Of a stretch of 49,065 nt of DNA, positions 5,819 through 40,854 are shown in pieces. Within the stretch, counting starts at the first letter, position 1. The number at the start of each line of letters is the position of its first letter. The stretch is from an uncultured Acidiferrobacterales bacterium (lineage in GTDB: Bacteria; Pseudomonadota; Gammaproteobacteria; Acidiferrobacterales; UBA6901), in assembly GCA_964368085.1 (NCBI GenBank), contig CAYJBG010000003.1, forward strand, positions 1-49,065, written 5' to 3'. The translations under genes and the position numbers were made by a program. Below the pieces are notes generated by a model. It saw nothing but the letters and a program-made list of their open reading frames with translations. It was not told where the DNA came from and ran no database searches.

Positions 5819-5894
5819 CGCTACCCCGGGCCGTGCACGCCGGACAAAAATCAGGGGCGGCTCACGCCGCCCCTGGTTCCGTGCAACGGCGCTG

Positions 5895-7335: not shown

Positions 7336-7341
7336 ACGCTG

Positions 7342-8097: not shown

Positions 8098-8107
8098 TGC
8101 TTGCCCC

Positions 8108-8262: not shown

Positions 8263-8392
8263 ATACTTGTTCCGGGGCTCACAATCGTTGTTTCATACGC
8301 CGGTGGGTCGCGGCACGAATTTTCGTTACGATGGTGCAAGCGCCGGACTCCTCGGAGTATTCGCCGCCGAGCTGGCGCCTGTCAAGAAACAG

Positions 8393-9916: not shown

Positions 9917-10599
9917 GCGGGGTTCCGGAAGTAGTCGTCGAACACGTGCACCGTGTAGGCGTGCGTGAGCGCACGCCGCAGCACCGGGTCGCGCAGCTCG
10001 AGCGTGATCGTCGCTCCACCTTTCGGCGGCGCGCCCAGCGTCGGCGCCGTGCCGCCAAAAAACAGGCGTCCGTCCGATCGCACGCCGTCGTGGCGCGCGA
10101 CGAACTCGGCAAGCGTCGCGATCGGCAGGAGATTGGCCACGCCACCCTCCTGCAAGACTGTCTCGCCACAGCTCGCGCGCAGTTGCAGCGCGTCCCAGTG
10201 CTCCCGCACCTCGGCCAGCGGCCACGCCGTCGCGCCGACCACCTTGGGGCAGGAGTTCTTGCCTTGCAGCGAAGACGCCGCCTCGATGCGCCGGTCGGTG
10301 TGGTCGCTGCCCACGGTCACGTAATCCACGCCCTGGCACGTGAACAGGACCGCCTCCACTTCAGGCGTCGAGTCTGTTCCGATCACGCCGATGTCGGTGG
10401 CATTGGTCACGAGTGTTGGCATCAATGGATAGAGCATCGGCACATGCGGTGGGGGCTTGACGCCCATCTCCGCCATGCGTGCGATATGGCGCTGCACCTT
10501 CTCGGCGTCCCGCCCGGTCGCACCCAGGGCCAGCGCGCGCCTGACCTCCAGCGTGATGCGTTGACCTTCCGGCAGCTCGAAGGTGAGTACCGGGAACAC
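9913..10599 (-). CDS. DUF2848-like protein, 228 aa
   Basis: The pattern ..GATGRD...V..HI..M...GV..P...P.LY......T......VIG..S..EVE.VL......YVTVGSDHTDR..E......K..CPK.. matches my recollection of DUF2848. A GTG start lies 1 nt after the upstream gene's stop. Confidence 0.6.
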   Translation of the reverse strand: MFPVLTFELPEGQRITLEVRRALALGATGRDAEKVQRHIARMAEMGVKPPPHVPMLYPLMPTLVTNATDIGVIGTDSTPEVEAVLFTCQGVDYVTVGSDHTDRRIEAASSLQGKNSCPKVVGATAWPLAEVREHWDALQLRASCGETVLQEGGVANLLPIATLAEFVARHDGVRSDGRLFFGGTAPTLGAPPKGGATITLELRDPVLRRALTHAYTVHVFDDYFRNPA

Positions 10600-10600
10600 G

Positions 10601-13510: not shown

Positions 13511-13650
13511 GCCGACCGGCCCCTGCGGGCGGGCAGACCGGCCGCCTGCAATCCCAAAAATACCGGATGGTGAAACACGGCTGCGACCTCTTTAAGATCA
13601 GGAGAAAAGGAGTCCGCTACGCCCGGGGATTATTAAAGATCGGAGCTCCC

Positions 13651-13660
13651 TTGTATACAA
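13651..13660. promoter_or_regulatory. Perfect 10-bp palindrome TTGTATACAA in the divergent promoter region (candidate GntR-type operator)
   Basis: Read directly. It lies in the AT-rich 277-bp spacer between the 13510(-) and 13788(+) starts. It fits the generic GT-Nx-AC operator logic. No cognate regulator gene is in the window. Confidence 0.3.
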
Positions 13661-13787
13661 AATACTTGCGTTATGTATTCAGTTCGCGATACTTCTACAC
13701 GCTGAAATGGACAGGTCCGCAGTGCGGCACTGGCATCCGGATGCAGCCCAGTTTGGGTCTCTGGCACGACGAATTAGAGAGGGAAAT

Positions 13788-14987
13788 ATGGCATTCCGAA
13801 GCGGGCGCCACTTTTTGCAGATTCCCGGTCCAACCAATGTCCCGGACCGAATCCTGCGGGCCATCCACCAGTCCACCATCGATCATCGCGGTCCCGGCTT
13901 CGCCCAGCTCGGGACCGAAGTCCTCGCCGGCCTGAAGCAGGTCTTCAAGACCAAAAGCGACGTCGTCATATACCCGGCTTCCGGAACCGGTGCCTGGGAA
14001 GCGGCGCTGGTGAACACACTCTCCCCCGGCGAGCGCGTGTTGATGTTCGAGACCGGCCAGTTCGCCGCTCTCTGGCAACGCATGGCCGGCGAACTCGGGC
14101 TCAACACCGAGTTCGTGCCCGGCGACTGGCGGCATGGCGCCGACCCGGACCTGGTCGAGTCAAAACTGCGCGCCGACCGCCAGCACGAGATCAAGGCGGT
14201 GTGCGTCGTACACAATGAAACCTCCACCGGCGTCACCAGCCGTATCGGCGAGATTCGCGCCGCCATGGACCGCGCCCGGCACCCGGCGCTGCTCATGGTC
14301 GATACCATCTCCTCGCTGGCCTCGATCGACTACCGGCACGATGAATGGGGTGTCGACGTGACCGTCGGCGGCTCGCAAAAGGGGCTCATGCTGCCACCGG
14401 GCCTGAGCTTCAACGCCGTCAGCGCCAAGGCGCGCGCGGCGGCCAAGCAGGCAAGGCTGCCGCGCGCGTACTGGCGCTGGGAGGACATGATCCGCGCCAA
14501 CCAGTCCGGCTACTTTCCCTACACGCCGGCCACCAACCTGCTTTACGGGTTGCGCGAGGCGCTGAACATGCTGCTGAAGGAAGAAGGTCTCGACCAGGTA
14601 TTCGCGCGCCACGCGCGCCTGGCCGAGGCCACGCGCCGCGCGGTGCGCGCCTGGGGACTTGAGATTCTCTGTCTCAATGAAGCGGAGTACAGCAACACGC
14701 TCACGGCGGTGCTCGTACCCAAAGGCCACGATGCCGACAATCTGCGCGCCACCATACTCGAACGCTTCGATATGTCGCTCGGCACCGGCCTGGGCAAGGT
14801 CCAGGGCCGGGTGTTCCGTATCGGTCACCTCGGCGACTTCAATGAACTGATGCTGGCCGGAACGCTGTGCGGTGTCGAAATGGGTCTCGCCGCCGCCGGC
14901 GTGCCGCACCGCGCCGGCGGCGTGCTCGCGGCGCTCGAATACCTCGCCGGCGCGCAGCCCGCGTCCCGGGCCGCTGCCCGGGCCTGA
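13788..14987 (+). CDS. Class-V aminotransferase, serine-glyoxylate / alanine-glyoxylate aminotransferase-like, 399 aa
   Basis: GRHFLQIPGPTNVPDRILRAI..., YPASGTGAWEAAL, HEIKAVCVVHNETSTGV and GGSQKGLMLPPGL (PLP lysine) follow the SgaA/AGXT pattern. The ATG at 13788 is preceded by GAGAGGGA. Confidence 0.85.
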   Translation: MAFRSGRHFLQIPGPTNVPDRILRAIHQSTIDHRGPGFAQLGTEVLAGLKQVFKTKSDVVIYPASGTGAWEAALVNTLSPGERVLMFETGQFAALWQRMAGELGLNTEFVPGDWRHGADPDLVESKLRADRQHEIKAVCVVHNETSTGVTSRIGEIRAAMDRARHPALLMVDTISSLASIDYRHDEWGVDVTVGGSQKGLMLPPGLSFNAVSAKARAAAKQARLPRAYWRWEDMIRANQSGYFPYTPATNLLYGLREALNMLLKEEGLDQVFARHARLAEATRRAVRAWGLEILCLNEAEYSNTLTAVLVPKGHDADNLRATILERFDMSLGTGLGKVQGRVFRIGHLGDFNELMLAGTLCGVEMGLAAAGVPHRAGGVLAALEYLAGAQPASRAAARA

Positions 14988-15061
14988 GCCGAGAAAAAAA
15001 TTCATCCCGATTCAAATTTACGAACCCCAGACATTTCGAACCACCCACCGGAGGAGCGACC

Positions 15062-16039
15062 ATGAAACGACTGTACCCGTTAGCGCTACTGGCCCTCGCG
15101 GCCCTCATCCCGCTGCCGTCCGCGGCCGATACCATTGAAATCAAGCTCGGTCATGTCGGCAGCCCGGGATCCCTGTTTGAACTCTCCTCGGAAGAGTTCG
15201 CCAAACGCGCCAATGCCAAGCTCGGCAACAAGGCCAAGGTCGTGGTGTTCGGATCGAGCCAGCTCGGCGGCGACAAGGAGATGGTGCAAAAAATGAAGCT
15301 CGGCACGATCGAAATGGCGCTCCCGTCCACGGTCATGTCCTCCGAGAGCGATCTGTACGGTGTATTCGAGATGCCGTACCTGGTCAAAGATCGCGCCCAC
15401 ATGGGCCGGATCGAGAAAGACTTTTTCTGGTCAACGCTGGCGCCCGCCGCCGAGTCCAAGGGACTGAAGGTCCTGGCGGTGTGGGAAAACGGCTACCGCC
15501 ACATCACCAACAACAAGCACCCGATCAAGGCGCCGGCCAACCTGCAAGGCATCAAGCTGCGCGTACCGGAGGGCAAGTGGCGGTTGAAGATGTTCCAGGC
15601 CTACGGCGCCAATCCGAGCCCGATGAAACTGTCCGAGGTGTTCACCGCGCTGCAAACCGGCGTGATGGACGGCCAGGAGAATCCGTTGACCCAGATTCAC
15701 AGCTCCAAATTCCAGGAGGTCCAGAAATACCTGTCGCTCACCGGCCATGTCTACACGCCGGCCTATCTGACGGCCAGCAAAAAGAAATGGGACACGCTGC
15801 CGGCGGACGTGCGCAAGATTCTCGAGGACACCGCCAGGGGAACACAGTCCTTCGTGTATGCCACGGCCCAGAAACTCGATGACGACCTACTGGGGAAAAT
15901 GAAGGCCGCCGGCGTGAAGGTCAACGAGGTGGACAAGGATGCCTTCGTCAAGGCCAGCAAACCCGTATACGAAGAGTATGGCGCCGAGGTCAAGGGCGCC
16001 AAGGAACTGATCGACAAGGCGCTGGCGCTCGGCAAATAA
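15062..16039 (+). CDS. TRAP transporter substrate-binding protein (DctP family)
   Basis: 325 aa from the ATG at 15062. It has a signal peptide (LLALAALIPLPSAA/DT) and a DctP body (IKLGHVGSPGS...). Confidence 0.9.
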   Translation: MKRLYPLALLALAALIPLPSAADTIEIKLGHVGSPGSLFELSSEEFAKRANAKLGNKAKVVVFGSSQLGGDKEMVQKMKLGTIEMALPSTVMSSESDLYGVFEMPYLVKDRAHMGRIEKDFFWSTLAPAAESKGLKVLAVWENGYRHITNNKHPIKAPANLQGIKLRVPEGKWRLKMFQAYGANPSPMKLSEVFTALQTGVMDGQENPLTQIHSSKFQEVQKYLSLTGHVYTPAYLTASKKKWDTLPADVRKILEDTARGTQSFVYATAQKLDDDLLGKMKAAGVKVNEVDKDAFVKASKPVYEEYGAEVKGAKELIDKALALGK

Positions 16040-16110
16040 TGCGTCGTTGCAACCGCCCCGCTCGAACAGCGGGGCGGGATTCTCATCCGGATGGGGGGAC
16101 AATCCAGCTT

Positions 16111-16626
16111 ATGTTGATGCGCCTGCGCACGTGGTTCGAGCGCCTGCTGGAGGTCATCGTGATGGTCTTGATGATCGCCCTGGCCGCGGAGGTCACGATT
16201 GGTGTGATCTACCGCACAATGGGTATCTCGCTCGCCTGGTATGACGAGATCGCCTCAATCCTGCTGGCCTGGCTGACCTACTACGGCGCGGCGCTGGCCG
16301 CGCTGAAACGCGCCCACATCGGCGTGCCGGGCCTGGTGCAGGCGCTGCCGCGGCGCTTGCGCCTGCCGCTGGTGCTGGTGGCCGAAGGCCTGGTGTTCGG
16401 CTTCTTCCTGTTGCTGGCGTGGGTGGGCCTTGAGGTGATGGACATGCTCGCCACCGATTTCCTCATCAGCCTGCCGGATGTGTCCAGCAAGTACACCCAG
16501 TCGGTGATTCCGATCGGCGCCGTGCTGTTTATTATCGCCCAGGCGCTCAATCTGCCGGAGACGCTGCGCGCCGCCAAGGCCGGGCATATTAAACATCAGG
16601 CCGAAGCCGTGGAGGTCAGCCAGTGA
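16111..16626 (+). CDS. TRAP transporter small permease (DctQ family)
   Basis: 171-aa 4-TM protein between the DctP and DctM genes. The start was trimmed to the ATG at 16111. Confidence 0.8.
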   Translation: MLMRLRTWFERLLEVIVMVLMIALAAEVTIGVIYRTMGISLAWYDEIASILLAWLTYYGAALAALKRAHIGVPGLVQALPRRLRLPLVLVAEGLVFGFFLLLAWVGLEVMDMLATDFLISLPDVSSKYTQSVIPIGAVLFIIAQALNLPETLRAAKAGHIKHQAEAVEVSQ

Positions 16627-17906
16627 CCATCCTGTTGCTGTTCGGCTGCGTCCTCGCCCTGGTGCTGATCAACGTACCCATCGCGGTCGCGCTCGGCGTC
16701 GTCGCCGTGGTGGCGATCGTCGTGAGCCATGGCGTCGATTCGCTGCCGAACGTGGCGCTGACCATGTTCAACGGCGCCACCAATTTTCCACTGCTCGCCA
16801 TCCCGCTGTTCATCCTGGCCGGCGCCATCATGAACGCCTCCGGCATTTCGCGCCGCCTGATCGCCTTCGCCTCGGCGGTCCTGGGTTTCATCCGCGGCGG
16901 CCTGGCCATGGTCAGCATCGGTTCCTCGATGTTCTTCGCCGAGATCTCCGGCTCGGCCGTGGCCGACGTGGCGGCCCTGGGTTCGATTCTGATCCCGGCC
17001 ATGAAGAAAAAGGGCTACCCGAAAGCCTTCGCCGCCGCGGTCATGTCGTCGGCGGCGACGCTCGCGGTCATCATCCCGCCGTCGATCCCGATGATTCTGT
17101 ATGCGGTGATGGCGGATGTTTCGGTGGTGCAGATGTTCGTGGCCGGCATCGTTCCCGGCATCCTCGGCGGCCTCGGGCTGATGGGCATGGCCTACTGGTT
17201 CGCGCGGCGCCATCACTATCCGATCGAGGAAGTCTTCCGGCTGGCGCGCGTGTGGGCCACGTTCAAGGATGCGTCCTGGGCGTTCATGCTGCCGCTCATC
17301 ATTCTCGGCAGCATCTTCACCGGCATCGTCACCGCCACCGAAGGCGCCGCGCTGGCGGTGGTCGCGGCGCTGTTCATCGGCCTCGTGGTGTACCGCGAAC
17401 TTGACTGGAAACACCTGAAAGAAGCCATGATCGAGGGTGGCGTGCAGACCGCCGTGGTGATGCTGCTGGTCGCGACTTCCTCGCTCCTGGGCGTCTATCT
17501 CACCGAGGTTCAATTACCGCAACAACTGGCCGCTTCGGTGAGCGACTACACCAGCAATAAATACGTGGTGTTGCTGTTGCTCAATATCTTGTTTCTGATG
17601 CTCGGCATGTTTCTGCATTCAGCCGCCGCCATCATCCTGGTGGTGCCGGTGGTGCTGCCCCTGGCGCTGTCGGTCGGCATCGACCCGGTGCACTTCGGCC
17701 TGATCGTCACCATCAACCTCGGCATCGGCCAGCAGACCCCGCCGGTGGCGAGCGTGTTGATGGTCGCCTGCACCATCGCCAAGGCCGACATCTGGGAAGT
17801 CACCAAGACCAACATCTACTTCATCGGCGTACTGCTCGCGGTGCTGCTGATGGTGACCTACGTCCCGATCACAGGAATGGGTCTCGTTGAGTACTTCTAC
17901 CGCTGA
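16623..17906 (+). CDS. TRAP transporter large permease (DctM family)
   Basis: 427-aa polytopic protein with typical DctM sequence. Its GTG start overlaps the DctQ stop by 4 nt. Confidence 0.9.
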   Translation: MTILLLFGCVLALVLINVPIAVALGVVAVVAIVVSHGVDSLPNVALTMFNGATNFPLLAIPLFILAGAIMNASGISRRLIAFASAVLGFIRGGLAMVSIGSSMFFAEISGSAVADVAALGSILIPAMKKKGYPKAFAAAVMSSAATLAVIIPPSIPMILYAVMADVSVVQMFVAGIVPGILGGLGLMGMAYWFARRHHYPIEEVFRLARVWATFKDASWAFMLPLIILGSIFTGIVTATEGAALAVVAALFIGLVVYRELDWKHLKEAMIEGGVQTAVVMLLVATSSLLGVYLTEVQLPQQLAASVSDYTSNKYVVLLLLNILFLMLGMFLHSAAAIILVVPVVLPLALSVGIDPVHFGLIVTINLGIGQQTPPVASVLMVACTIAKADIWEVTKTNIYFIGVLLAVLLMVTYVPITGMGLVEYFYR

Positions 17907-29207: not shown

Positions 29208-29507
29208 TCACACGGGGAAGGAACGCGGCGGGGCGCGCGAGAAGTAGGCCGACGGTGGATCGCCGGCGATACAGGTATGGCGGAGAGAAATCGGAAGCAG
29301 CGGCGCCGGTAGCGGTGCCATGACAGCAGCGGTTACCGGCAAGGCGCCGGTCAGCGGCGTATGGGCAAGACACCATTCACAGGCGTGGCTGGACGCATGT
29401 GGCTCGAGGTTCGCGCCATGCTGCACCAGCAACCACTGTGCGAACAGCAGCACACCCGCGAGTGACAGCGCAAGCAGCGGACGTGACAGAAGGCGATGCC
29501 GCAGCAT
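29208..29507 (-). CDS. Small membrane-anchored CxxC protein, DUF2946-like (tentative), 99 aa
   Basis: It has an N-terminal TM/signal anchor (LLSRPLLALSLAGVLLFAQWLL) and then HASSHACEWCLAH. The start was trimmed to the ATG at 29507. The family assignment is from memory only. Confidence 0.4.
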   Translation of the reverse strand: MLRHRLLSRPLLALSLAGVLLFAQWLLVQHGANLEPHASSHACEWCLAHTPLTGALPVTAAVMAPLPAPLLPISLRHTCIAGDPPSAYFSRAPPRSFPV

Positions 29508-29544
29508 GCGGCCGTTATACCCGCTCGCGTTGCGCGCGGCAAGC

Positions 29545-30252
29545 TCAGCGGCGCGGCGCACCCGACCACCAGCGCACACTCGCGCCGAGCGGGGCGCGCC
29601 CGAGGCGCGGCTGCAACCAATAACGCAGCACCACCAGACTGATCGCCACCGCGATGAGCGCGGCGACCAACGCATCGCTTGGGTAGTGTTTGGCAAGCGC
29701 CAGTCGGCTCAGGGCGAGTGCGCCGGCCCAGAGCAGGCACAGGCCAGCGGCCCACGGGTTGCGAAACAGGAGCGCGGCGAACAGCGTGCTGATCACAATG
29801 TCGGCGCTGTGGCCGGAGGGAAACGAGTGATGCGCCGCGTCCCAGCTGAAACCGGCCCACTCGCTGCCGAAGTCCGGCAACGGCGTGGCATCCGGGCGGG
29901 CGCGACCAAACGTCATCTTCAATATGCGCACAATCAACACGCTGCCCAGGAATTGCGCGAGCAGATAACCCTGCGCGAGAAGTTTCAGACCGGGTTCGCG
30001 GCGATACCAGCCCCAGGCGAACAGCGCGAGGAACAGGATATAGAAAGGGTACAGGCCGTAGTTGGTAAACGCGCGCAGGAACGCGTAATGCTCTTGCGTC
30101 CAGGCCGCGCGGTGCACGAGTGCGACACTGCCGCTGTCGCCGTACACCAGCGCGAGCAGCAGACCGAGCACAGCGAGTGTGGCAAATGCGGCCGTCACGA
30201 ACTGCAGGCGGCGGGTGAGCGGTGCGAACTTCGGTTTCGCGCGGCGCGGCAT
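29545..30252 (-). CDS. PAP2-family lipid phosphatase
   Basis: All three acid-phosphatase motifs are present: KMTFGRARP, FPSGHS and SRLALAKHYPSD. The protein is multi-TM. Confidence 0.85.
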   Translation of the reverse strand: MPRRAKPKFAPLTRRLQFVTAAFATLAVLGLLLALVYGDSGSVALVHRAAWTQEHYAFLRAFTNYGLYPFYILFLALFAWGWYRREPGLKLLAQGYLLAQFLGSVLIVRILKMTFGRARPDATPLPDFGSEWAGFSWDAAHHSFPSGHSADIVISTLFAALLFRNPWAAGLCLLWAGALALSRLALAKHYPSDALVAALIAVAISLVVLRYWLQPRLGRAPLGASVRWWSGAPRR

Positions 30253-30312
30253 GGGCGGAAACTATACCACAGGCACTCTTTCCGAATGATGCACTCAGTG
30301 GCAGGCACGGCA

Positions 30313-30545
30313 GCGAAACCGCAAACGGGCCGTCCCTCGGCAACTGCTCCCGGCGTTGCTCTCGACCGCTTGTTCCCGACGCGGTCTACCGCCTCCATCC
30401 CTGGAGGCGTACCTCCTGCATCCATGCAGTCGTGGCCCGCGGCCCTCGAACACGTGCCCCTGACGTCCCGCCTAAAACATCTCCCATCGGCGAAACCGCA
30501 AACGGGCCTTCCCTGGCCCGCGGCCCTCGCCTCGATCCCATCGGC
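30313..30545. repeat. Composite REP/MITE-like repeat region between divergent PAP2 genes
   Basis: Direct repeats: GCGAAACCGCAAACGGGCC at 30313-331 and 30490-508; TGGCCCGCGGCCCTCG at 30433-448 and 30514-529. Hairpins: CCTCCA-tccc-TGGAGG (30392-407) and CTGCAT-cc-ATGCAG (30416-429). Confidence 0.65.
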
Positions 30546-30552
30546 GAATGCT

Positions 30553-31266
30553 ATGATGCCGTTCACGAACACCATCACGGCGCCTTTCATGTCTGCCCTG
30601 CTCCGCCGCCATCTCGATCTGTTGCTGCTTTTCGCTATCGGCGTGCTGCTGGTGGCCTTCCCCCGGATCGATATTGCCTTCGCCGGTCTGTTCTATGACC
30701 CCTTCGACGGCTTTTACTTGCGCGAGAATCCGTTCGTGCGTCTTGTCTTCAATGGCGTGTCGTGGATTACGCGCACCGTGGTCGTGAGTCTCGTGCTGTT
30801 CCTGCTCGCCGCCTGGACGATCCGGAGGCGGCACAGGTTTTTTTCGCGTCAACGGCGCGCCGCGCTTTATCTGTTGCTGGTCATGATCATCGGACCGGGC
30901 CTGCTGGTGAACACGGTATTCAAGGATCAGTGGGGGCGCGCGCGCCCGTCGCAGATCGAGGAATTCGGCGGCACCAAACAATTCACGCGCGCCGCCATCC
31001 CCGCCGACCAGTGCGAAAAAAACTGCTCATTCGTGAGCGGCCATGCCTCGGTGGGCTTCTTCTTTCTGTCATTCTCTTTCGTCTGGCCGCGCCGCCGGGT
31101 TCTCTGGTTTGCCGCAGGCGCCGGCCTTGGGCTCGGCATCGGCCTGGTGCGCATGATGCAGGGCGGGCATTTCATCAGTGACGTGATCTTTTGTGGCATC
31201 GTCGTCTATCTCAGCGCGCGTGGCCTGTACGCGCTGATGTTCGCGCCGGCTGAACCCCGCTCCTGA
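30553..31266 (+). CDS. PAP2-family lipid phosphatase (second copy, divergent)
   Basis: 237 aa from the ATG at 30553, which is only the C-terminal part of the 648-aa track ORF. Motifs are KDQWGRARP, VSGHAS and VRMMQGGHFISD. Confidence 0.85.
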   Translation: MMPFTNTITAPFMSALLRRHLDLLLLFAIGVLLVAFPRIDIAFAGLFYDPFDGFYLRENPFVRLVFNGVSWITRTVVVSLVLFLLAAWTIRRRHRFFSRQRRAALYLLLVMIIGPGLLVNTVFKDQWGRARPSQIEEFGGTKQFTRAAIPADQCEKNCSFVSGHASVGFFFLSFSFVWPRRRVLWFAAGAGLGLGIGLVRMMQGGHFISDVIFCGIVVYLSARGLYALMFAPAEPRS

Positions 31267-31418
31267 TTCGCGTCCATAGACGATTTTATCGGGCGCAAAC
31301 CTCCCACGGTGAAACCCAGCGAAGGGGCTGAACCTCCCCGTTGGAAGCGCAACAGGCATCGCCTGTTATCCCTTGCCCCGGCTTGGCCCACCTTGTTTTC
31401 CCGCTATCATTAGGATGG

Positions 31419-34400
31419 ATGCCCACGCGTCGAACACCCAAACCACGGGCCACGGCCCGGCCCGCGAAACTCTCCCCGCCCCGGCTTGGGGCGATCCAGC
31501 CGCGCCCGCGACTCTTCAAGCTCCTCGACCGGGAACGAAAACACCCCATCGTGTGGATCGAAGCCCCGGCCGGGGCCGGCAAGACCACGCTTGCCGCAAG
31601 TTACCTCATCGCGCGCCGGTTGCGAACACTCTGGTATCAGATCGACACCCGCGACGCCGACCCGGCGGCATTCTTCTATTATCTTCGGCTGGCGGTCCAA
31701 AAGATTTCACCGCGCAAGACCGAGATACTCCCGCTGCTCACGCCGGAGCACTACGCCGGACTTGCGGTGTTTACGCGAAATTTCTTCGAGGAAATCGCGC
31801 GGCGCCTACCGTCGTCCACCGCGATCGTGTTCGACAACTATCAGGACGTTCCAGAGAACGCGCCGCTGCACGCGCTCCTCGCCGAGGCGGTCACAGCACT
31901 CCCACGCGGCATCTCCCTGATCGTGCTGAGCCGCGCCGAGCCACCGCCCGCCTTTGCCCGGCTTCGCGCTCACGGCGAAATCGCGCGGCTCGGCTGGGAC
32001 GAGGTCCGGCTGACGCGCGCCGAACTCGCCGGCTTCGTGCGCGCACACCGTACCCGGCTCTCGAGCGGTGCGCTCAACCGGCTGTACGAGCGCACCGACG
32101 GCTGGGCCGCCGGCGTGCGCGTGGTGCTTGAGAGCGGCAGTGACGCGGAAGCGCGCGCCAGTGAGTCGCTGTTCGACTACTTCGCCGCCGAGATTCTGCG
32201 ACACGCCGAACCGGCGTTGCGTGAATTTCTGTTCTCAACCGCGCTGCTGCCACAGATCACGGTGTCCGCCGCCGAGGCGTTGACCGACAACCACGGCTCC
32301 GCGCGCATCCTCGCCGACCTTACGCGCCGCAATTTCTTCACCGTGCGCCGCACCGGGCCGGAGACGGCGTACGAGTACCACCCGCTGTTTCGAGAATACC
32401 TGCTGCACGCCGCGGCGGCGCACCACGGGCACGAGGCCTGGGTCACACTCAAGCGCCGGACCGCAACGCTCCTCATCGCCGACAATCAGTTCGAGCACGC
32501 CGCGCGACTCATGCACGAGGCGGGTGATACTCCGGGCCTCGCCGAGATCATCGCCGCCCAGGCCACCACGTTCGCCGCCCAGGGGCGGCTTCAGACCCTC
32601 GAATACTGGCTGCGGGCACTGCCGGCCGAAACACTCGAACACTCCGGCTGGCTCAGCTACTGGTTCGGCATCTGTAGGCTGCCGTTCGACTTGATCGAGG
32701 CGCGCGCGCACCTGGAGCGCGCCTACGCCGGGTTCCAGCAGACCGATGATTCGCCCGGGTTATACCTCGCTTGGGCGGGGGTCGTGGAGACGTTCTTCTA
32801 TCAATGGGACGATTACGCGCCGCTCGATCGCTGGCTCGACGAACTTGAGAGACTGCGGCAGACGCATCCGCTGGATCGCTGCGCGCAGGTGCAACCGCGC
32901 GTGGTCTATGCGGCGTTGAGCGCGCTTGGCTTTATTGGCACCGGCCGCCCCGAGCTAAGTGTTTGGGTGCAGGCGGGCGAGACGCTGCTCACGACCTTGC
33001 ACGACCCGAACCTGCGCGTGCTGCTCGCCGCGGCGCTGTGCCTGCACTGCGTGTGGATCGGCGACCTCGAAAAGCTCGACGTAATCGCGACGCAGTTGCG
33101 CACGCAGTTGAAGGGCGCGGAACTCGCACCGGTGGCGCATTTTCACGGCTATTTCGCACTCGCCGAGCACGGCTGGATCACCGGCGACGTCGTGCAAGGC
33201 GAACGCTGGCTGCGCGCGGGCTTCGCCTACGGTGAGCGCCTTGGCATCCGCATGTTCGAGCCGCTGTTGTGCGGGCAGGCGCTGTATCTCTACGAAGTCA
33301 ACGGCGACGAAGATGCCGTGGCCCGCACACTCGAACGCATGCGCCGGGCGCTCGACCCGCGCCGCCGTCTCGATCTCGCACATTACCGTTACCACGCGAC
33401 CTGGCTCGCGCTCGCGCGGGGCGAGGCGCGCCGGGCACGCGACCTCGCCGAGCAATCACTCGCGCTCGCCGAGTTGTTGTTCGCCCGCTTTCCGATCGCG
33501 CTCAACCGCATTCGATTGGCCGAGACGTTGGTGGAGCTCGCGGAATTCGCGGACGCCCACCGGCACCTCGACGCGGCCGGGACAATCGCCGCACGCATGG
33601 GCAGCGAATTGCTTCGATTCATGACTGGACTGGTGCGCGCCTGGGCGTGGCATCGGGCCGGATGTACGGAGGAGGCCGGCCGAACGCTCGCGGCGACCTT
33701 CGCTCTCGGACAACGCCTGGGCTATCGCGCCTACCCGGGCTGGAACGGCAAGATCGTCGCGGCGCTGTGCGCGCAGGCGCTCGCGCGCGGCATCGAACCC
33801 GACTACGCCCGCCGCCTGATTCGCGAACGCGGGCTGGTGCCGCCGGACAATGCCGGCGATATCGACACCTGGCCCTGGCCGGTCAAGGTCTACGCCCTCG
33901 GATGCTTCGACGTGCGCGTTGACGAACGCCCGCTGCCTGCGCGCGGCAAGCAGCAGCGCAAACCGCTCGATCTGGCGAAACTCCTGGTGAGCGCCGGACC
34001 GCGCGGCCTGTCCACGGAACAGGCGATCGAAACGCTGTGGCCGGAGCAGAACCAGGAACGCTCTTATCAATCGTACTCCATGGCGCTGCACCGGCTCCGC
34101 AAGCGGCTGGGTACGGACGAGTGTATCCTCGCCCAGGATGGCCGCGTGCTCCTGAACCCGCGCCGTGTCTGGGTCGATGCCTGGGCCTTTGAGCAGACGT
34201 TCGCGCCGCGCGCCGACACCAGCGCCACCGCGCGGCTCGAGCGCGCAGTAGCGCTCTACAAAGGAGCGTTTCTGGGCGAAGCCACAGCCGAACCCTGGGG
34301 CCTGGCTTATGCCGAGCGGCTTTATAGTAAGTATCTGCGCGCGGTGCTGGAGCTGGGTCAGCACCGGCAGAAGGAAGGCGCCTTCGAGCGCGCCATCGAG

Positions 34401-34601
34401 CTCTACCAGAACGCTCTCGAACACGACGACTTGCAGGAATCCCTCTACCAGCGCCTGCTCGTCTGTTACGGCGAAACCGGTCGCCGCGCCGACGGGCAGC
34501 GCGCCTACGAACGCTGCCGCAAGTGCCTGCAAGAGGCGCTCGGCGTCAGCCCCTCGGCGCAGACCGAAACACTAAGGGCGCGGTTGCTCAAGACGCAGTA
34601 A
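31419..34601 (+). CDS. STAND-type ATPase with helical/TPR-like middle and a C-terminal SARP module (OmpR-type winged helix + BTAD), 1060 aa
   Basis: The N-terminus is MalT-like (LSPPRLGAIQPRPRLFKLL...WIEAPAGAGKTTLAASYL is Walker A, about 31563-31589; AIVFDNYQDV is Walker B-like). A long helical repeat region follows. The C-terminus from about 33880 reads VKVYALGCFDVRVDERPL...KPLDLAKLLV...LSTEQAIETLWP...LHRLRKRLG (wHTH) and then ALYKGAFLGE...YLRAVLELGQ...AIELYQNALEHDDLQESLYQRLLVCY...GRRADGQRAYERCRKCLQEALGVSPSAQTETL (BTAD). Confidence 0.8.
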   Translation: MPTRRTPKPRATARPAKLSPPRLGAIQPRPRLFKLLDRERKHPIVWIEAPAGAGKTTLAASYLIARRLRTLWYQIDTRDADPAAFFYYLRLAVQKISPRKTEILPLLTPEHYAGLAVFTRNFFEEIARRLPSSTAIVFDNYQDVPENAPLHALLAEAVTALPRGISLIVLSRAEPPPAFARLRAHGEIARLGWDEVRLTRAELAGFVRAHRTRLSSGALNRLYERTDGWAAGVRVVLESGSDAEARASESLFDYFAAEILRHAEPALREFLFSTALLPQITVSAAEALTDNHGSARILADLTRRNFFTVRRTGPETAYEYHPLFREYLLHAAAAHHGHEAWVTLKRRTATLLIADNQFEHAARLMHEAGDTPGLAEIIAAQATTFAAQGRLQTLEYWLRALPAETLEHSGWLSYWFGICRLPFDLIEARAHLERAYAGFQQTDDSPGLYLAWAGVVETFFYQWDDYAPLDRWLDELERLRQTHPLDRCAQVQPRVVYAALSALGFIGTGRPELSVWVQAGETLLTTLHDPNLRVLLAAALCLHCVWIGDLEKLDVIATQLRTQLKGAELAPVAHFHGYFALAEHGWITGDVVQGERWLRAGFAYGERLGIRMFEPLLCGQALYLYEVNGDEDAVARTLERMRRALDPRRRLDLAHYRYHATWLALARGEARRARDLAEQSLALAELLFARFPIALNRIRLAETLVELAEFADAHRHLDAAGTIAARMGSELLRFMTGLVRAWAWHRAGCTEEAGRTLAATFALGQRLGYRAYPGWNGKIVAALCAQALARGIEPDYARRLIRERGLVPPDNAGDIDTWPWPVKVYALGCFDVRVDERPLPARGKQQRKPLDLAKLLVSAGPRGLSTEQAIETLWPEQNQERSYQSYSMALHRLRKRLGTDECILAQDGRVLLNPRRVWVDAWAFEQTFAPRADTSATARLERAVALYKGAFLGEATAEPWGLAYAERLYSKYLRAVLELGQHRQKEGAFERAIELYQNALEHDDLQESLYQRLLVCYGETGRRADGQRAYERCRKCLQEALGVSPSAQTETLRARLLKTQ

Positions 34602-34734
34602 TCCGGTTTTTCTTCTTCGATACCCATTGCACCGTTGTTCGCGATAGAACCGGTATTACCCTGGTAAAACACTCCCGGGCGCCTGCCAAAACCGTACTGC
34701 CTTGCCCTCATCCACCGATCCTGCTGCTTGAAAA

Positions 34735-34818
34735 CCCCTCTCCCTGTGGGAGAGGGGCAAGGAGTGACGACTGCATGGATGCAGGAGGTGGAACAACGCA
34801 TGGAGCAGTTGCCGAGGG
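34735..34818. repeat. REP-like element; a shorter, inverted copy of the 30334-30433 element, plus a perfect 10-bp hairpin
   Basis: The hairpin is CCCCTCTCCC-tgt-GGGAGAGGGG (34735-757). ACGACTGCATGGATGCAGGAGGT (34767-789) is the exact reverse complement of 30411-30433. GGAGCAGTTGCCGAGGG (34802-818) is the exact reverse complement of 30334-30350. Confidence 0.7.
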
Positions 34819-34935
34819 CTGGGTTTCGGGTCGTGGTCGGTCATTTTCCAGACCCTCTTTAAAGTCTTTCCCGGCGCAAGCAGCCCTCCCCGAATCGGTG
34901 AGTCATCTGTTAACCCACCACTCTACGCTTGGCGC

Positions 34936-35112
34936 ATGGAGAGTTACGTGCTGCGCATCTACCGCCGCGACGGCGAGGGCCGCCTCACCGGGCTCGTGGA
35001 ACGGGTCGAGACCCAGGAACGCCTTGCCTTTCACAGTGCGCGCGAGTTGTGGTCGATCCTGCACAACCACGCGCTGGCGCGCAAAAAGAGCAGGCGCCGG
35101 AAATCCGCCTGA
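34936..35112 (+). CDS. Small ORF (58 aa) absent from the track: MESYVLRIYRRDGEGRLTGLVERVETQERLAFHSARELWSILHNHALARKKSRRRKSA
   Basis: Hand-translated. Third-codon-position G+C is very high (about 85% by my count), like the real genes here. It falls below the 60-aa track cut-off. No obvious SD. Confidence 0.55.
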   Translation: MESYVLRIYRRDGEGRLTGLVERVETQERLAFHSARELWSILHNHALARKKSRRRKSA

Positions 35113-36740: not shown

Positions 36741-36896
36741 ATGAAACCAGTCACCCATTTTGGAATGGCCTTGGCGGTAGCAGCGCTGCTGATCCTGGCC
36801 GGCTGCGGCGGAGGCGGGGGTTCCTCGGCGGCAGCGGCCGACACAACGTCTACCACTTCTTCGGTGGCCGTTACAACTGTTCTAACGACGCAGTAG
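36741..36896 (+). CDS. Small lipoprotein (51 aa) absent from the track: MKPVTHFGMALAVAALLILAGCGGGGGSSAAAADTTSTTSSVAVTTVLTTQ
   Basis: Hand-translated. It has a lipobox (LILAGC). GAGGAG lies 7 nt upstream of the ATG, and the gene starts 11 nt after the previous gene. Confidence 0.55.
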   Translation: MKPVTHFGMALAVAALLILAGCGGGGGSSAAAADTTSTTSSVAVTTVLTTQ

Positions 36897-36945
36897 CCAG
36901 AACGGAATGAGGACAACGCTTGCAACTTTAATGAGGAGAAACGTC

Positions 36946-38664
36946 ATGCAAGAATTCATCTCAACGTATCGGAGATTCTTCACCGCATTGATCGCGTCGT
37001 TGCTCGCGTCGCTCGCCGCCTGCGGTGGCGGTGGTGCGTCGACGCCTCCACCGCCTGCGGCGCCACCCACAGCGTCCTCGGTGATGGCGCTTTATACCAG
37101 TGCCGCGAACTGGAACGACTACTTGCGCAACGACGGCGCGAGCCTATTCCAGGCGAGTAATACTGCTTGCACCGGTACCGAAACCGGCGACCACAACGTC
37201 TGCCTGCACGGCGGTGAGTTGCGCGCCGTGGTTGTGGCCGGACGCAGCAGTTGCGCGGGACTCTCTGCCGCCGACGCGCTCGGCGCCTTCGACTGGACCT
37301 GCGACGCTTCCGTAAACCCGGTACGCGTGGTCTCGGCGGGTTTGAAGCGCAACAAGAATCTTTCGGACCTGATCGACTTTTCCGCGGCGGCCTGGCGCGC
37401 CAACAGCGTGACGGTGAGCGACGGCGCGACGGCGCTGTTTGCCACCCCGTCATCCGCGTGGTGGAGCAACCCCGTGACACTCGCGAACGGCGGCGGCACG
37501 CTCGCCGCCGCCGGCACGACCTATCTCGCCACGGCCAACCCGGATGCCGTCTACACCTTCGGCGCCGACCGCGTGGCGTTCGTGGTGCAACCCGGGATCG
37601 AGATTACCGCGCCCGCGGCCATGCCGCGGGTCGTGTACGGCAGCGCGAAAAACTTTCTCTGGCTCGAAGGCGCAATCCATATTCAGGGCACGAACAGCGG
37701 GATCTCGCTCTTCACGGTCAAGTTCTCGCGCCTGCGCAACGTCGCGATTCGCGGCAGCGGCGGAACTTCCGGTACCGCCGCCCTGGACACCGACGCGTTG
37801 TCCGCGAGCCGGTTACTGCGTGTCACGATCATCAAGTCGGCTCTTTTCGGCGCCTATTTCACCAACGCCGGCGGTAACCTCATCGAGGAGATTGCGGTCG
37901 CGGACAACGCCGATACAGGACTGCGCCTCACCGGAAATCACAACGTGGTTTCTGGAGTGAAGGCCCAGGGCAACGGCGGTTTCGCCGGTATTCTGTACGG
38001 CGGCCCGCAAACCCTCCAGCAGGTCTACGCGGGCGGCAACGCGGGCAGCGGCATCGTCTCCTTTTCCGGCCAGAACAGCCGGGTCAATAACACCACGACC
38101 GTCAATAATGCCAGCGGCGGCCTGAGGCTCGCCAATGACGGCGCCACGGTCTCCGACGCGAGCCTGGTGATCAATCTCGCGAGCGCCAACGACGGCGCCG
38201 GGCTTACGCTCGTCAATACCGCCGGCGCTCCCAGTCCGGCACCGGCGGGCGGCACGTTCGAAAACCTGGCGATCGGCCACGCGGGGGCGATCGGGGTGAC
38301 GCTGCAAAATTCCTCGAACAATCGTTTCACCGGGCTGCTCAAGGTCGGCAACAATCTGACCGATTGCACCGTTACTGGCACCAACCCCGGGCTCGTGACG
38401 ACCACCTGCGCCAACCAGGGCGCCTCGGACGCCGTGCTCACGACGGGCATCGGCCTGGCGGCGAGCATTCCGGGAAAGGTAACGGGCGACGACGCCGTGA
38501 ACACCAGCGACGCCAGCGGGCTCGCCGCCTACGACACGCTCACCGACTGGCTCGGCTTCGCCAACGAGGCGCGCGGCTGGGGGCGCGACGGCAGCGCCTT
38601 CCCCACAACGCCGACCACCGTGGGCGCTGCGCCACCGGCGCGAACTGCCGCATCTGGGACATGA
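36946..38664 (+). CDS. Lipoprotein with a Cys-rich N-terminal region and a right-handed parallel beta-helix-like repeat region (N-terminal 572 aa as annotated)
   Basis: The ATG at 36946 follows GAGGAG. The lipobox is LASLAAC, followed by GGGG. Repeated ~22-25-aa G/N/T/S-rich segments occur (NVAIRGSGG..., NLIEEIAVADNADTGLRLTGNHNVVSGV..., GNAGSGIVSFSGQNSRVNN...NASGGLRLANDGATV...). GC3 collapses for the last ~20 codons, and the coding signal moves to the -1 frame at 38601-38604. Confidence 0.7.
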   Translation: MQEFISTYRRFFTALIASLLASLAACGGGGASTPPPPAAPPTASSVMALYTSAANWNDYLRNDGASLFQASNTACTGTETGDHNVCLHGGELRAVVVAGRSSCAGLSAADALGAFDWTCDASVNPVRVVSAGLKRNKNLSDLIDFSAAAWRANSVTVSDGATALFATPSSAWWSNPVTLANGGGTLAAAGTTYLATANPDAVYTFGADRVAFVVQPGIEITAPAAMPRVVYGSAKNFLWLEGAIHIQGTNSGISLFTVKFSRLRNVAIRGSGGTSGTAALDTDALSASRLLRVTIIKSALFGAYFTNAGGNLIEEIAVADNADTGLRLTGNHNVVSGVKAQGNGGFAGILYGGPQTLQQVYAGGNAGSGIVSFSGQNSRVNNTTTVNNASGGLRLANDGATVSDASLVINLASANDGAGLTLVNTAGAPSPAPAGGTFENLAIGHAGAIGVTLQNSSNNRFTGLLKVGNNLTDCTVTGTNPGLVTTTCANQGASDAVLTTGIGLAASIPGKVTGDDAVNTSDASGLAAYDTLTDWLGFANEARGWGRDGSAFPTTPTTVGAAPPARTAASGT

Positions 38665-39035
38665 GCCTCGCGAGCGCCGATACCGTGGTACGCGGCGTGC
38701 TCCCCAAGTACCTGAACGGCAACGCCGCGAGCACCATTATGCACGTCTGGTCGGTCACGGCGCCGACCAACCAGGCCGACTGTACCGCGGCCGTACCCGG
38801 CTCGGTGTTCTCGGGTGGCGAGTGCCGCAACACCTTCCTGCGCAATGCCGTGGAGATTTTGGGTGACGGGTTCGGCAACGACAACGGCCTGTGCGAGTCG
38901 AACGAGCGCTGCCTGCACACGCCCAACATCGGTGCCTACCAGGGCCACGGCGCGCTGATCTCGGCCGGCGGCTTCACGAACGGCGACACGTTGAGCAGCA
39001 TCGAGCTGCTCGAATACTCGACCAATGGCCGATGA
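38604..39035 (+). CDS. C-terminal continuation of the beta-helix lipoprotein in the -1 frame (alternatively a separate ATGA-coupled 124-aa ORF from 38661)
   Basis: The frame-0 translation is HNADHRGRCATGANCRIWDMSLASADTVVRGVLPKYLNG...CESNERCLHTPNIGAYQGHGALISAGGFTNGDTLSSIELLEYSTNGR*. It has high GC3 from 38604 onward, is Cys-rich like an extracytoplasmic domain, and has no signal peptide of its own. Confidence 0.55.
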   Translation, partial: HNADHRGRCATGANCRIWDMSLASADTVVRGVLPKYLNGNAASTIMHVWSVTAPTNQADCTAAVPGSVFSGGECRNTFLRNAVEILGDGFGNDNGLCESNERCLHTPNIGAYQGHGALISAGGFTNGDTLSSIELLEYSTNGR

Positions 39036-39096
39036 GCGGCCGTGTCGATATTTGCGAACAATACGGTGTTGAAACCGGTGTAAGAGGAGAAACCAA

Positions 39097-40854
39097 ATGC
39101 TGAAGATACCGGCGGTCATCAAAGTCTTGTCCCTGGCCACGCTACTCGCCCTCGCCGCCTGTGGAGGCGGCGGGGGCGGAGGCGGTGGTGGCGCCACGCC
39201 GCCGGTCACCGGCTTTACTAAAAACGTGTCCTTGCCCGTCGCGCCTGCGGGCGACTGGAATCTTTTCTCCTCGGGCGCAGGCTCCAAGCGCTACCAGGCC
39301 CTGGTCCGGGCGCAGGACATTCGAGGCTCCGGCCCGCTGCGGTCGTTGGCGTTCCGGCGCGGCGCGGACTCGATTGGCAACAGTTGTCCGAACGTCACCA
39401 TTAAGCTCGTGCACCGGCCCGTTAGCGCCACACTCGACACCACCTTCGCCAACAACGTCACGCCGGGGCGGGGCGCGGTAACAACCGTGTTCGGCCCAGC
39501 CACGCTCACGATTCCCGCCGAATTTGCTGGCGAGTATTTCACTATCCCCTTGAACGGCGCGTTCAACTACAACGGCGTGGATAACCTGATCGTGGACATC
39601 GAGACCGACGGTTGCAGCGCGAACACCGTGATCGACGCCCGCGATGCGAACCCGGTGTACACCGCGCTGATCTACCACTTTACCGACCGCACGGCGCCCA
39701 CGGGTTCAACCTGGAACAGCCTCGCCGACATGAAGTTCACCTTCGCCGGTGGCGACAACCGGGTGCAGTCTCCCGGCGCCTTGGGTCTCAGCTCCTTTCC
39801 ATTCACTGCGGCAGCCGGGGGAGCCAAAGTCCAACTGCTCTACTACAGCTCCGCATTCACCAGCGATGAAATCGACGGCAGCGGTCCGATTACGGGCATT
39901 GCCTTCCCGATCGCGGGCGGCGCTGGTTTCCCACCCGGCCCAGTGACCGCGCAAACCCATACGGTCACCGTGAAGCTCGGCCACTCGACCCTCACCGCCC
40001 TTACCGACACGTTCGCGAACAATTTCAACAGCGGTGCCCCGGTGACCGTGGCCAATGCCGTGACGTTCGAGATTCCGGCGGGTGTGCCGGCCGGACGATA
40101 CCTTTGGGCGCCGCTGCCGGACGGAACATTCAACTACAACGGTACGGACAATCTCATCGTCGAGATCGAGGCGAGCGCCGCACCGGCATTCACCTGGACG
40201 ACCACGCATGAAGATACGCTGAGCCAGCGACGGCTCTCGGCCTCTTCGGGTGCGACGACCGGGATGCTGGACAGAATCGTGAACGACATCCAACTGCGCT
40301 TCGCCGGCGGCGGCATGGACGCGATCACTCCAGACGCGATGTCGGGCGGCCTCTCGGATTCTTTCCCGTTTGCCAACATCAACGGGAAGCGCCAATTCCT
40401 GTATCGCGCCGCAGAACTCGGCACCCGGGGAACGATCTCGAAAATCGCGTGCCGCACCAACACGGGCGGTCCGAGCACGACTGGCTTCAACTACTCAGTG
40501 GTACTGAGCCACAGCACGGCGTCCACTCTGGACACCAGCTTCGCTACTAACTTGGTGAGCCCGGTAACGGTGTTCAGCGGTACATTCAACCTGCCGGCGA
40601 TGGTCGCCGGCGATTGGATCGAGATCCCCTTGACGACGCCATTCGCCTACAACGGTCGACACAACTTGGTGCTGGAAATCGGCGGTACCGGTGGAGAATC
40701 GGGTGGCGGGATTTTTTCGGACAGGTTTGCGTGCGCACGCGATGACGCAAGCACCGCGCTTTACGCCGGACGCCGGTTGTTCGGTGCAACATCGACTGAC
40801 GCCACGGGCTCCGTAAGCAACTCGATGATCGACACGCGCTTCACGTTGCAATGA
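39097..40854 (+). CDS. Lipoprotein composed of three tandem copies of a ~180-aa module of unknown family, 585 aa
   Basis: The lipobox is LLALAAC, followed by poly-Gly. Conserved blocks recur three times: TFANN / TFANN / SFATN at aa 116, 305 and 481; F(N/A)YNG..NL(I/V)(V/L)(D/E)I at aa 156, 345 and 516; and a module end of (K/R)F(T)(F/L) at aa 213, 401 and 581. Confidence 0.8.
   Translation: MLKIPAVIKVLSLATLLALAACGGGGGGGGGGATPPVTGFTKNVSLPVAPAGDWNLFSSGAGSKRYQALVRAQDIRGSGPLRSLAFRRGADSIGNSCPNVTIKLVHRPVSATLDTTFANNVTPGRGAVTTVFGPATLTIPAEFAGEYFTIPLNGAFNYNGVDNLIVDIETDGCSANTVIDARDANPVYTALIYHFTDRTAPTGSTWNSLADMKFTFAGGDNRVQSPGALGLSSFPFTAAAGGAKVQLLYYSSAFTSDEIDGSGPITGIAFPIAGGAGFPPGPVTAQTHTVTVKLGHSTLTALTDTFANNFNSGAPVTVANAVTFEIPAGVPAGRYLWAPLPDGTFNYNGTDNLIVEIEASAAPAFTWTTTHEDTLSQRRLSASSGATTGMLDRIVNDIQLRFAGGGMDAITPDAMSGGLSDSFPFANINGKRQFLYRAAELGTRGTISKIACRTNTGGPSTTGFNYSVVLSHSTASTLDTSFATNLVSPVTVFSGTFNLPAMVAGDWIEIPLTTPFAYNGRHNLVLEIGGTGGESGGGIFSDRFACARDDASTALYAGRRLFGATSTDATGSVSNSMIDTRFTLQ

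Follow-up and report, generated by a model that had tools for sequence, protein, structure and literature searches.

A predicted lipoprotein of an uncultured Acidiferrobacterales bacterium built from an old triplication of an unnamed beta-sandwich domain

Introduction

Surface lipoproteins assembled from several beta-sandwich domains are a familiar class of proteins. The gene described here, located at exactly 39097-40854 on the forward strand of a 49,065-nt stretch of DNA from an uncultured Acidiferrobacterales bacterium (contig CAYJBG010000003.1, positions 1 to 49,065; hereafter the window), encodes a 585-aa protein with no internal stop that appears to belong to this class. It consists of three diverged copies of a domain (hereafter the module) whose family is large, unnamed and without a solved structure or a studied member.

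Among described proteins, carbohydrate-binding modules (CBMs), namely CBM36 and those of the acetyl-xylan esterases PbeAcXE and FjoAcXE, resemble the module, as it is predicted, in being all-beta sandwiches of similar size that are extracellular, non-catalytic and often repeated. Their structures (7ay3, 7tog, 7tok_B) match the module with Foldseek probabilities of 0.85-0.93 and template modelling scores (TM) of up to 0.51 on the target side, and the module co-occurs with CBM96 in large proteins. However, there is no sequence or profile similarity to the CBM families of Pfam, the structural matches have E-values above 1e-2 and root-mean-square deviations (rmsd) above 8 Å, and the module is ~50 residues larger than CBM36 (7ay3: TMq 0.31, TMt 0.43, rmsd 8.2 Å, E 0.028; 1w0n: TMt 0.39).

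In phages, the beta-sandwich domains of tail-tip, baseplate and minor tail proteins serve host-surface recognition. The best structural neighbours of the module are domains of this kind, from the Bxb1 tail tip (9d93_Pa; TMq 0.51, rmsd 5.1 Å), the phi812 baseplate (9eui_Q), the central fibre protein gp20 of phage Douge (8zdp_v) and an uncultured member of Caudovirales (A0A6J5NL19). The whole lipoprotein chain aligns to gp20, itself a string of such domains, over 518 columns. Unlike phage tail proteins, the lipoprotein is chromosomally encoded, carries a lipoprotein signal, matches no PHROG and has no phage genes nearby, its neighbours being regulators, lipoproteins and a thioredoxin.

The PHR domain of the PAM/Highwire/RPM-1 proteins (mouse MYCBP2, 3gbw), a beta-sandwich of ~160 residues, is matched with a Foldseek probability of 0.98 and TM 0.40-0.45, but it is eukaryotic and intracellular, gives no profile match and superimposes with an rmsd of 8.1 Å. 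Heads of the TNF/C1q type resemble the lipoprotein in idea, with three jelly-roll units in one functional body. In this case, however, TM stays below 0.2, no profile match was obtained (neither a Pfam C1q or TNF match nor a fold match with TM >0.5), and the module also occurs singly or in pairs elsewhere. Giant-virus collagen-like proteins and proteins with a BclB C-terminal domain match the module with TMq 0.27-0.34.

Results and Discussion

Three modules derived from an old triplication

The original prediction, based on a hand alignment, had divided the protein into three modules whose sequences seemed a quarter to a third identical. Comparison of the modules within those boundaries bears it out. 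In BLASTP searches, modules 1 and 2 align with E 7e-18 (39% identity), modules 1 and 3 with E 3e-15 (33%) and modules 2 and 3 with E 7e-12 (40%); the corresponding Smith-Waterman z-scores are 23.8, 19.6 and 14.4, and for each pair the observed score was reached by none of 500 shuffles. Counted over every aligned column of the modules, the same three pairs are 36.5%, 29.2% and 31.1% identical, close to the estimate by eye. A hidden Markov model (HMM) of the module places the copies at residues 38-219, 223-405 and 407-585, in agreement with these boundaries, and the strand pattern of the AlphaFold model recurs with the module period. The internal periodicity is significant by BLASTP and by shuffling.

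At the DNA level, likeness between the modules is reduced to short remnants of 50, 32 and 14 nt, spaced 558-585 nt apart and coinciding with the most conserved motifs, which indicates that the duplication is old. A search of 5.8 billion proteins gave 246 scored relatives; nearly all of the 120 listed are 550-600 aa long, and the few annotated ones among them are termed 'hypothetical', except for one Joint Genome Institute entry named NCAIR mutase. Those with organism names belong to Nitrospirota, Smithellaceae, Spirochaetota, Gammaproteobacteria and Sulfurimonas. The cultured strain Sulfurimonas sp. HSL1-2 carries a member (protein P0116, locus WCX18_01750). Further carriers emerged when species-representative genomes were scanned, namely Acidiferrobacterales (the best match, 64%, locus L009), Nitrospiria, Holophaga, Leptospirales, Burkholderiales, Sulfurimonadaceae, Thermodesulfobacteriota and Oligoflexia. 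Two or three paralogues are present in several Spirochaetota and Leptospirales genomes; several paralogues per genome are common in surface lipoprotein families.

When 93 relatives were cut into their modules, each of the 279 resulting modules had its nearest relative in a different protein, at the corresponding position. On average, identity is 39-44% between orthologous and 26-31% between paralogous modules. Since the modules group by position and not by protein, the triplication was fixed before the family spread over at least ten bacterial phyla. A recent duplication is ruled out both by the shortness of the DNA remnants and by the position-wise grouping, in keeping with the old triplication originally proposed.

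Lipoprotein signal and tether

The N-terminus of the protein reads MLKIPAVIKVLSLATLLALAAC, followed by ten glycines, and matches the lipobox pattern [LVI][ASTVI][GAS]C of bacterial lipoproteins, which are processed by Lgt and signal peptidase II. The lipobox cysteine is Cys22 (codon TGT, 39160-39162), conserved in 96% of the 93 homologues; a lipobox was detected in 84 of the 93 and a Gly/Ser-rich tether after the cysteine in 79. The lipoprotein assignment made in the original prediction was therefore retained, as both the LAAC lipobox and the glycine tether are conserved features, and we infer from the sequence that the protein is lipidated at Cys22. Of the 84 homologues in which a lipobox was detected, 67 have Gly and 11 have Ser as residue +2. 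Because this residue is Gly in the lipoprotein itself, the outer membrane is favoured as its probable site, and an outer-membrane or surface location is expected.

The glycine run is encoded by a 15-nt tandem repeat of 2.1 copies (39163-39193), the sole tandem DNA repeat in the gene. Three contigs, each assembled separately from groundwater sampled at Hainich, encode the identical protein, so its sequence is no assembly accident. The G+C content of the window (58-68%) and the best match at L009 point to an Acidiferrobacterales-like gammaproteobacterium as the most likely source. The sequence C-GGGG following a lipobox also occurs in two other predicted lipoproteins of the window, a 51-aa protein (36741-36896) and a beta-helix protein.

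Conserved residues and cysteine pairs

The conserved columns of the family, FPF, G.I..IAF, KLGH(S/T)..L..TFA.N, IPAG..G.W..PL..F.YNG.DNL(I/V)VE and (K/R)F.F, coincide with the shared motif blocks first read by eye, which are thus real. A core signature common to all three modules comprises Q.LY, GSG.I..I.F, GH(S/T), FA.N, PAG, W..PL and F.YNG.DNL. Each module has one histidine at the equivalent position, kept in 96% (H106), 98% (H296) and 86% (H472) of the homologues. A tryptophan is retained in modules 2 and 3 (W337 is invariant, W507 is present in 96%), and the linkers between modules are invariant GG turns (G218/G219 and G404/G405).

Two cysteine pairs co-vary. Both C97 and C173 of module 1 are present in 88 of 93 homologues, while for C452 and C546 of module 3 both are found in 58 homologues, neither in 25 and only one in 10. 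Such co-variation is characteristic of disulfide bonds in extracytoplasmic proteins.

A widespread domain without a named family

Neither the whole protein nor its separate modules matched any family of Pfam, NCBIfam or PHROGs at E <=1, and nothing was found among PDB sequences by phmmer or by profile. Thirty-four modules scanned singly against Pfam at E <=10 yielded no family matched by more than one module, and in 18 multidomain relatives Pfam covers the partner domains, never the module region. These results, including the pooled weak Pfam hits, rule out a named domain. The statement that the module is not a recognised domain thus holds for sequence families, and Foldseek searches with the module gave no match below E 1e-3 either; neither the protein, nor its modules, nor the 34-module scan revealed a characterised Pfam domain.

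A profile of the 34 modules, run against 1.84 billion representative proteins, matched 9,301 clusters (at 50% identity) with E <=1e-3 and 408 with E <=1e-30, spanning bacteria, archaea and at least one phage. The top matches are three-module proteins of ~570 aa. The search adds a qualification to the original description: the module is a free-standing domain that also exists outside triplets. It was found in proteins of 1,400-2,700 aa together with CBM96/disaggregatase repeats, PKD, Big_5, cadherin-like, TSP3, fn3 and Ig_7 domains and a sorting tail of the type IX secretion system; CHB_HEX_C, the chitobiase C-terminal domain, is a further partner in large proteins. These partners are all extracellular adhesion or glycan-binding domains. 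Giant archaeal proteins (Thermoplasmatota, Methanobacteriota) contain 2, 3 or 2+2 copies in the loci fetched, a 4,580-aa protein of Verrucomicrobia contains 5 dispersed copies, and single copies occur in Planctomycetota, Bacteroidota and other proteins. An obligate triplet is ruled out by these copy numbers (1, 2, 3, 2+2, 5). Such varied numbers and partners mark the module as a building block of general use in extracellular proteins, with the triplet lipoprotein as one stable arrangement. A phage origin is ruled out as well, since only 1 of 2.9 million viral contigs encodes the module.

We propose that the lipoprotein represents a new, unnamed domain family within the class of beta-sandwich surface lipoproteins, the three-module form being one sharply conserved architecture. 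It is carried by lineages from groundwater and sediment that drive sulfur and nitrogen cycling as well as syntrophic carbon cycling. A definition of the domain would allow thousands of surface proteins now called 'hypothetical' to be annotated.

Predicted structure and fold neighbours

An AlphaFold model of the whole chain, built with a 93-sequence alignment, consists almost entirely of strands, with a mean predicted local distance difference test score (pLDDT) of 91.5 and a predicted template modelling score (pTM) of 0.88; disorder is confined to the signal peptide and the tether. Module 2 modelled alone retains its strand pattern with pLDDT 93 and pTM 0.90. Its confident folding in isolation suggests that each module is a self-contained domain, and the pTM of 0.88 over 585 residues suggests that the modules hold fixed positions with respect to each other, so that the model predicts a rigid three-module body.

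Whole-chain Foldseek searches against the PDB gave weak multi-domain matches, the best being Douge gp20 (E 2e-4, TM 0.2). With the single module, whose modelling and structural search had been suggested as a check on its identity, only remote fold matches were obtained: none was below E 1e-3, and TM did not exceed 0.51. The best PDB matches are the phi812 baseplate, the Bxb1 tail tip, PHR, CBM36, the CBM of acetyl-xylan esterase and viral jelly-roll capsid proteins. Among predicted viral structures, the Caudovirales protein A0A6J5NL19, itself uncharacterised, matches the module well, with TMq 0.72, rmsd 3.2 Å, 19% identity and E 1e-5, and the other matches are minor tail and collagen-like proteins. 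The tail-tip, baseplate, PHR, CBM and Caudovirales neighbours are all binding-type beta-sandwiches. The model thus places the module in a predicted jelly-roll-like beta-sandwich class of the kind used for binding, with no close solved relative.

Single-module relatives with an in-frame TGA

Of all relatives, the remotest are small genes that encode a single module and are homologous over its whole length (hhalign probability 99.4%, E 3e-21). They occur alone in Fermentibacteria/Sabulitectum and Hyd24-12 genomes, and genomes labelled Coatesbacteria, Zixibacteria or 'uncultured bacterium' carry 5-9 paralogues in a tandem array (Table 1). Genomes with single-module relatives include CP070633 and OY970370. 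Of the small single-module open reading frames (ORFs) listed, 43 of 49 contain an in-frame TGA, never TAA or TAG, with the frame open on both sides. Its position is fixed, ~25 codons after the signal peptide and ~9 codons before the first core strand of the module, and it is preceded by PF.GC (giving G-C-U) or PFC.. (giving C-x-x-U). TGA also terminates an ordinary gene at the same locus.

A hairpin begins 16 nt 3' of the TGA. In a group of 28 sequences 98% of the stem cells pair, with five pair types at one stem position, and in a group of 11 sequences 94% pair, with two compensatory positions. In slid controls, where the 3' partner was shifted by 1-3 columns, 18-50% of cells pair, with one exception at 74%. 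The segment after the TGA is also more stable than its shuffles (mean z -1.4 over 41 sites, vs -0.05 for control segments). This hairpin, resembling a selenocysteine insertion sequence (SECIS), was identified by folding and covariation; the SECIS families of Rfam gave no match on the TGA loci at gathering thresholds, and the single-module relatives match no NCBIfam selenoprotein model or Pfam family. Because gene callers stop at the UGA, the single-module proteins are represented in databases mostly by fragments of 124-176 aa starting after the TGA. Full-length readthrough paralogues have Ser, Ala or Gly at the TGA position.

With both a conserved in-frame UGA and a downstream hairpin, the relatives at loci L060-L085 look like a candidate undescribed family of secreted selenoproteins; the three-module lipoprotein gene has no internal stop and no Cys in the equivalent loop. 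A text search of a 2026 review of prokaryotic selenoproteins gave no mention of Zixibacteria, Fermentibacteria, Coatesbacteria or the word 'secreted'. This side finding bears on the possible chemistry of the domain and not directly on the lipoprotein gene. Should the link to selenoproteins hold, the prokaryotic selenoproteome would gain a new family, and the role of the domain would become easier to approach.

In two of the array loci the same gene order follows the TGA genes. SecD/F-like membrane and CcsA-like (Cytochrom_C_asm) genes lie ~1 kb downstream, separated from the array by one short ORF (L085 11527-14893, L084 11867-15303), and the next gene is ResB-like in L085, while its equivalent in L084 (398 aa) has no Pfam match. 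The SecDF/CcsA-like genes may constitute a dedicated export or maturation system.

Proposed function of the lipoprotein

Our preferred, still tentative, reading is that the tethered lipoprotein serves in multivalent, non-catalytic binding or adhesion to an extracellular ligand, most plausibly a glycan or another polymer surface. The lipid on Cys22 would anchor it in a membrane, most likely the outer membrane of its Gram-negative host, and the flexible glycine tether would hold a rigid body off that membrane. The body would consist of three tandem, independently folding beta-sandwich modules that arose from one ancestral module by triplication and, sharing the core signature, would present three equivalent but diverged faces for multivalent, non-catalytic binding or adhesion. 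This role is favoured because both the fold neighbours and the domain partners are binding or adhesion modules. No catalytic domain or motif was detected in the lipoprotein with Pfam, NCBIfam or the 34-module Pfam scan.

Several observations weigh against it. The residues common to all three modules are also kept in distant relatives and, judged from the alignment, may define the fold rather than a site. The histidine conserved in each module, together with the Cys/Sec (selenocysteine) motifs of the relatives, points instead to a chemistry based on metal or redox. No support for a function comes from the gene neighbourhood, in which each neighbour is limited to 6 or fewer of 38 loci. The argument for rigidity has pTM as its sole basis, and the PDB matches of the module (all E >1e-3, TM <=0.51) are too remote for a binding site to be transferred from them.

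We consider it unlikely, but the strongest of the alternatives, that the module carries a metal-, chalcogen- or redox-active site, the conserved histidine and neighbouring polar residues of each module binding a metal or cofactor, and that the lipoprotein takes part in periplasmic or extracellular handling of metals or of sulfur/selenium. An equivalent histidine does occur in every module, with the conservation given above, yet Fermentibacteria members lack it. Single-module relatives have a cysteine beside this histidine (CHT) and a CxxU or GCU loop before the first core strand, whereas the equivalent loop of the lipoprotein, which reads FPFTAAAGG or FPFANING, contains neither Cys nor Sec, and its cysteines form the co-varying pairs typical of structural disulfides. 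Moreover, the readthrough paralogues have Ser, Ala or Gly, not Cys, at the Sec position, so that the CxxU/GCU motif looks like an addition in one branch. The context could be read in favour of such chemistry: the arrays in L084 and L085 are followed, ~1 kb downstream, by SecDF-, CcsA- and ResB-like genes, the lipoprotein gene adjoins a gene for a DsbH-type thioredoxin, and hosts include sulfur oxidisers (Acidiferrobacterales, Sulfurimonadaceae) and sulfate-reducer lineages. Matches to the copper monooxygenases DBH and PHM are weak, with probability <0.3 and TM <0.2.

A rather improbable alternative, which does not exclude a binding role, is that the three modules close into a pseudo-threefold ring derived from a homotrimeric one-module ancestor, in the manner of single-chain heads of the TNF or C1q type, and form a structural coat or a receptor-like surface unit. 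The copy number of exactly three, fixed over at least ten phyla, and the fixed mutual arrangement implied by a pTM of 0.88 fit this idea, as do the multi-gene arrays of one-module relatives, which could form hetero-oligomers. However, 1, 2, 2+2 or 5 dispersed copies elsewhere show that the module does not need two partners, and module 2 folds confidently alone. The whole-chain fold matches include the single-chain APRIL-BAFF-BAFF trimer 4zch_B (E 7e-3), and the module matches include collagen-like giant-virus proteins, one of them annotated with a BclB C-terminal domain, but the TNF-type match is poor (TM 0.15-0.19, probability 0.30). A TNF-like single-chain trimer was rejected, its sole match being 4zch_B with TM <0.2, and a full-text literature search for pseudo-trimeric jelly-roll lipoproteins returned nothing relevant.

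We also speculate, with similarly low expectation, that the module is a new, very widespread extracellular domain with a loop-and-histidine site for metal, sulfur or selenium chemistry, to which Sec was added in one branch, yielding the secreted selenoprotein arrays of Coatesbacteria-, Zixibacteria- and Fermentibacteria-like lineages, while in another three copies were fused into a closed pseudo-trimeric lipoprotein; under this reading, the window would encode the tethered form, without Sec, of a new extracytoplasmic redox or metal-handling class.

An enzyme, for example for degradation or modification of polysaccharides on a new beta-sandwich scaffold, is very improbable: large proteins do combine the module with disaggregatase-related repeats and a chitobiase C-terminal domain, some beta-sandwich folds bear catalytic sites, and the whole-chain matches include accessory domains of a rhamnosidase and a glucosyltransferase, but no catalytic family or motif was detected, the matched parts of those enzymes are non-catalytic, and in giant proteins the module is repeated in the manner of binding modules.

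Genomic neighbourhood

The gene order in the window is two PAP2 genes, a STAND-type regulator, a 54-aa ORF, a Crp-family regulator, a secreted 151-aa protein, the 51-aa lipoprotein, the beta-helix lipoprotein, a 124-aa ORF, the three-module lipoprotein and the DsbH-type thioredoxin (Table 1). No terminator-like site was found on the + strand between the last two genes. Clustering of the neighbourhoods of 38 non-redundant loci rules out a conserved operon, the commonest neighbour being present in 6, and the 151-aa, 51-aa, beta-helix and 124-aa neighbours of the window have no homologues at the other loci. In Sulfurimonas and Smithellaceae the gene has no called same-strand neighbour within ~200 nt. 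Genomic context therefore says little about the function of the lipoprotein.

The STAND/BTAD regulator is found near homologues of the lipoprotein gene in 5 of the 38 loci, all from Acidiferrobacterales, Gammaproteobacteria or Nitrospiria metagenome-assembled genomes; regulator homologues with 36-39% identity adjoin family members in L007, L009, L010 and L034. The 54-aa ORF of the window is homologous to the ORFs that follow both regulators of L007 (E 2e-8), and in the Nitrospiria locus L010 a small ORF lies directly between the regulator and the lipoprotein homologue. This suggests that in one environmental guild the gene is part of a regulator-linked set of lipoprotein genes.

The same succession, a STAND regulator of ~1,060-1,095 aa, an ORF of 54-64 aa and then lipoprotein genes, is seen in the window (31341-35112), twice in L007 (552-4225 and 12206-15814) and in L010 (5-1180). 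The small ORFs share the motif (I/V/L)R(I/V)YR...G..E....F....EL and have no Pfam match.

Table 1. Coordinates of features in the window and of TGA-containing relatives at other loci
Feature	Position	Strand	Remarks
PAP2-family phosphatase genes, two	29320-31266		upstream of regulator
STAND-type regulator, winged helix + BTAD, ~1060-1086 aa	31341..34601	+	Pfam BTAD E 6e-21; WHD_MalT
54-aa ORF after regulator	34948..35112	+	motif (I/V/L)R(I/V)YR; called in three assemblies
Shine-Dalgarno-like GAGGAG	39084..39089	+	ends 7 nt 5' of ATG; read from sequence
Predicted lipoprotein signal peptide, aa 1-22	39097..39162	+	basic n-region, hydrophobic core, lipobox L-A-A-C; from translation
Flexible tether, ten Gly then ATPPV	39163..39207	+	AlphaFold pLDDT <50 at residues 22-28
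Module 1, aa 38-219	39208..39753	+	HMM envelope 38-219; predicted beta-sandwich; C97/C173 pair, H106
Module 2, aa 220-405	39754..40311	+	best-conserved copy; FPF, H296, invariant W337
Module 3, aa 406-585	40312..40851	+	most diverged copy; FPF, H472, W507, C452/C546 pair
DsbH/DUF255 thioredoxin-domain gene, 692 aa	41200-43278	same as lipoprotein gene	345 nt downstream of lipoprotein gene
Array with in-frame TGA, L085	4600-10600		Cand. Coatesbacteria CP070633
Array with in-frame TGA, L084	5600-10800
Array with in-frame TGA, L077	1800-8400
Relatives with in-frame TGA, L070 and L071
Single genes with in-frame TGA, L060, L072, L074, L075, L078-L083

Immediately upstream of the three-module lipoprotein gene (36907-39035), the gene for the beta-helix lipoprotein (Pfam Beta_helix, E 2e-10) overlaps the 124-aa Cys-containing ORF by ATGA, and the frame of the latter is open for ~100 codons upstream of its ATG. 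A read error is ruled out by the same arrangement in three separate assemblies from the same site; the two ORFs may be translationally coupled genes or the product of an old frameshift.

The groundwater locus L007 (contig ERZ978390 k127_817516, 4521-17286) contains five consecutive lipoprotein genes whose signal peptides (M.I.STIRCALTVLIILGLAACGGSGGGG) are 73-96% identical, while the mature parts are unlike. Their products are an FG-GAP protein, a repeat protein of 473 aa, a pair of paralogues from the three-module family that share 76% identity, and a 5'-nucleotidase_C protein. One more lipoprotein gene, the sixth, at this locus (17110-17286) encodes 58 aa, with a signal peptide that is alike by eye.

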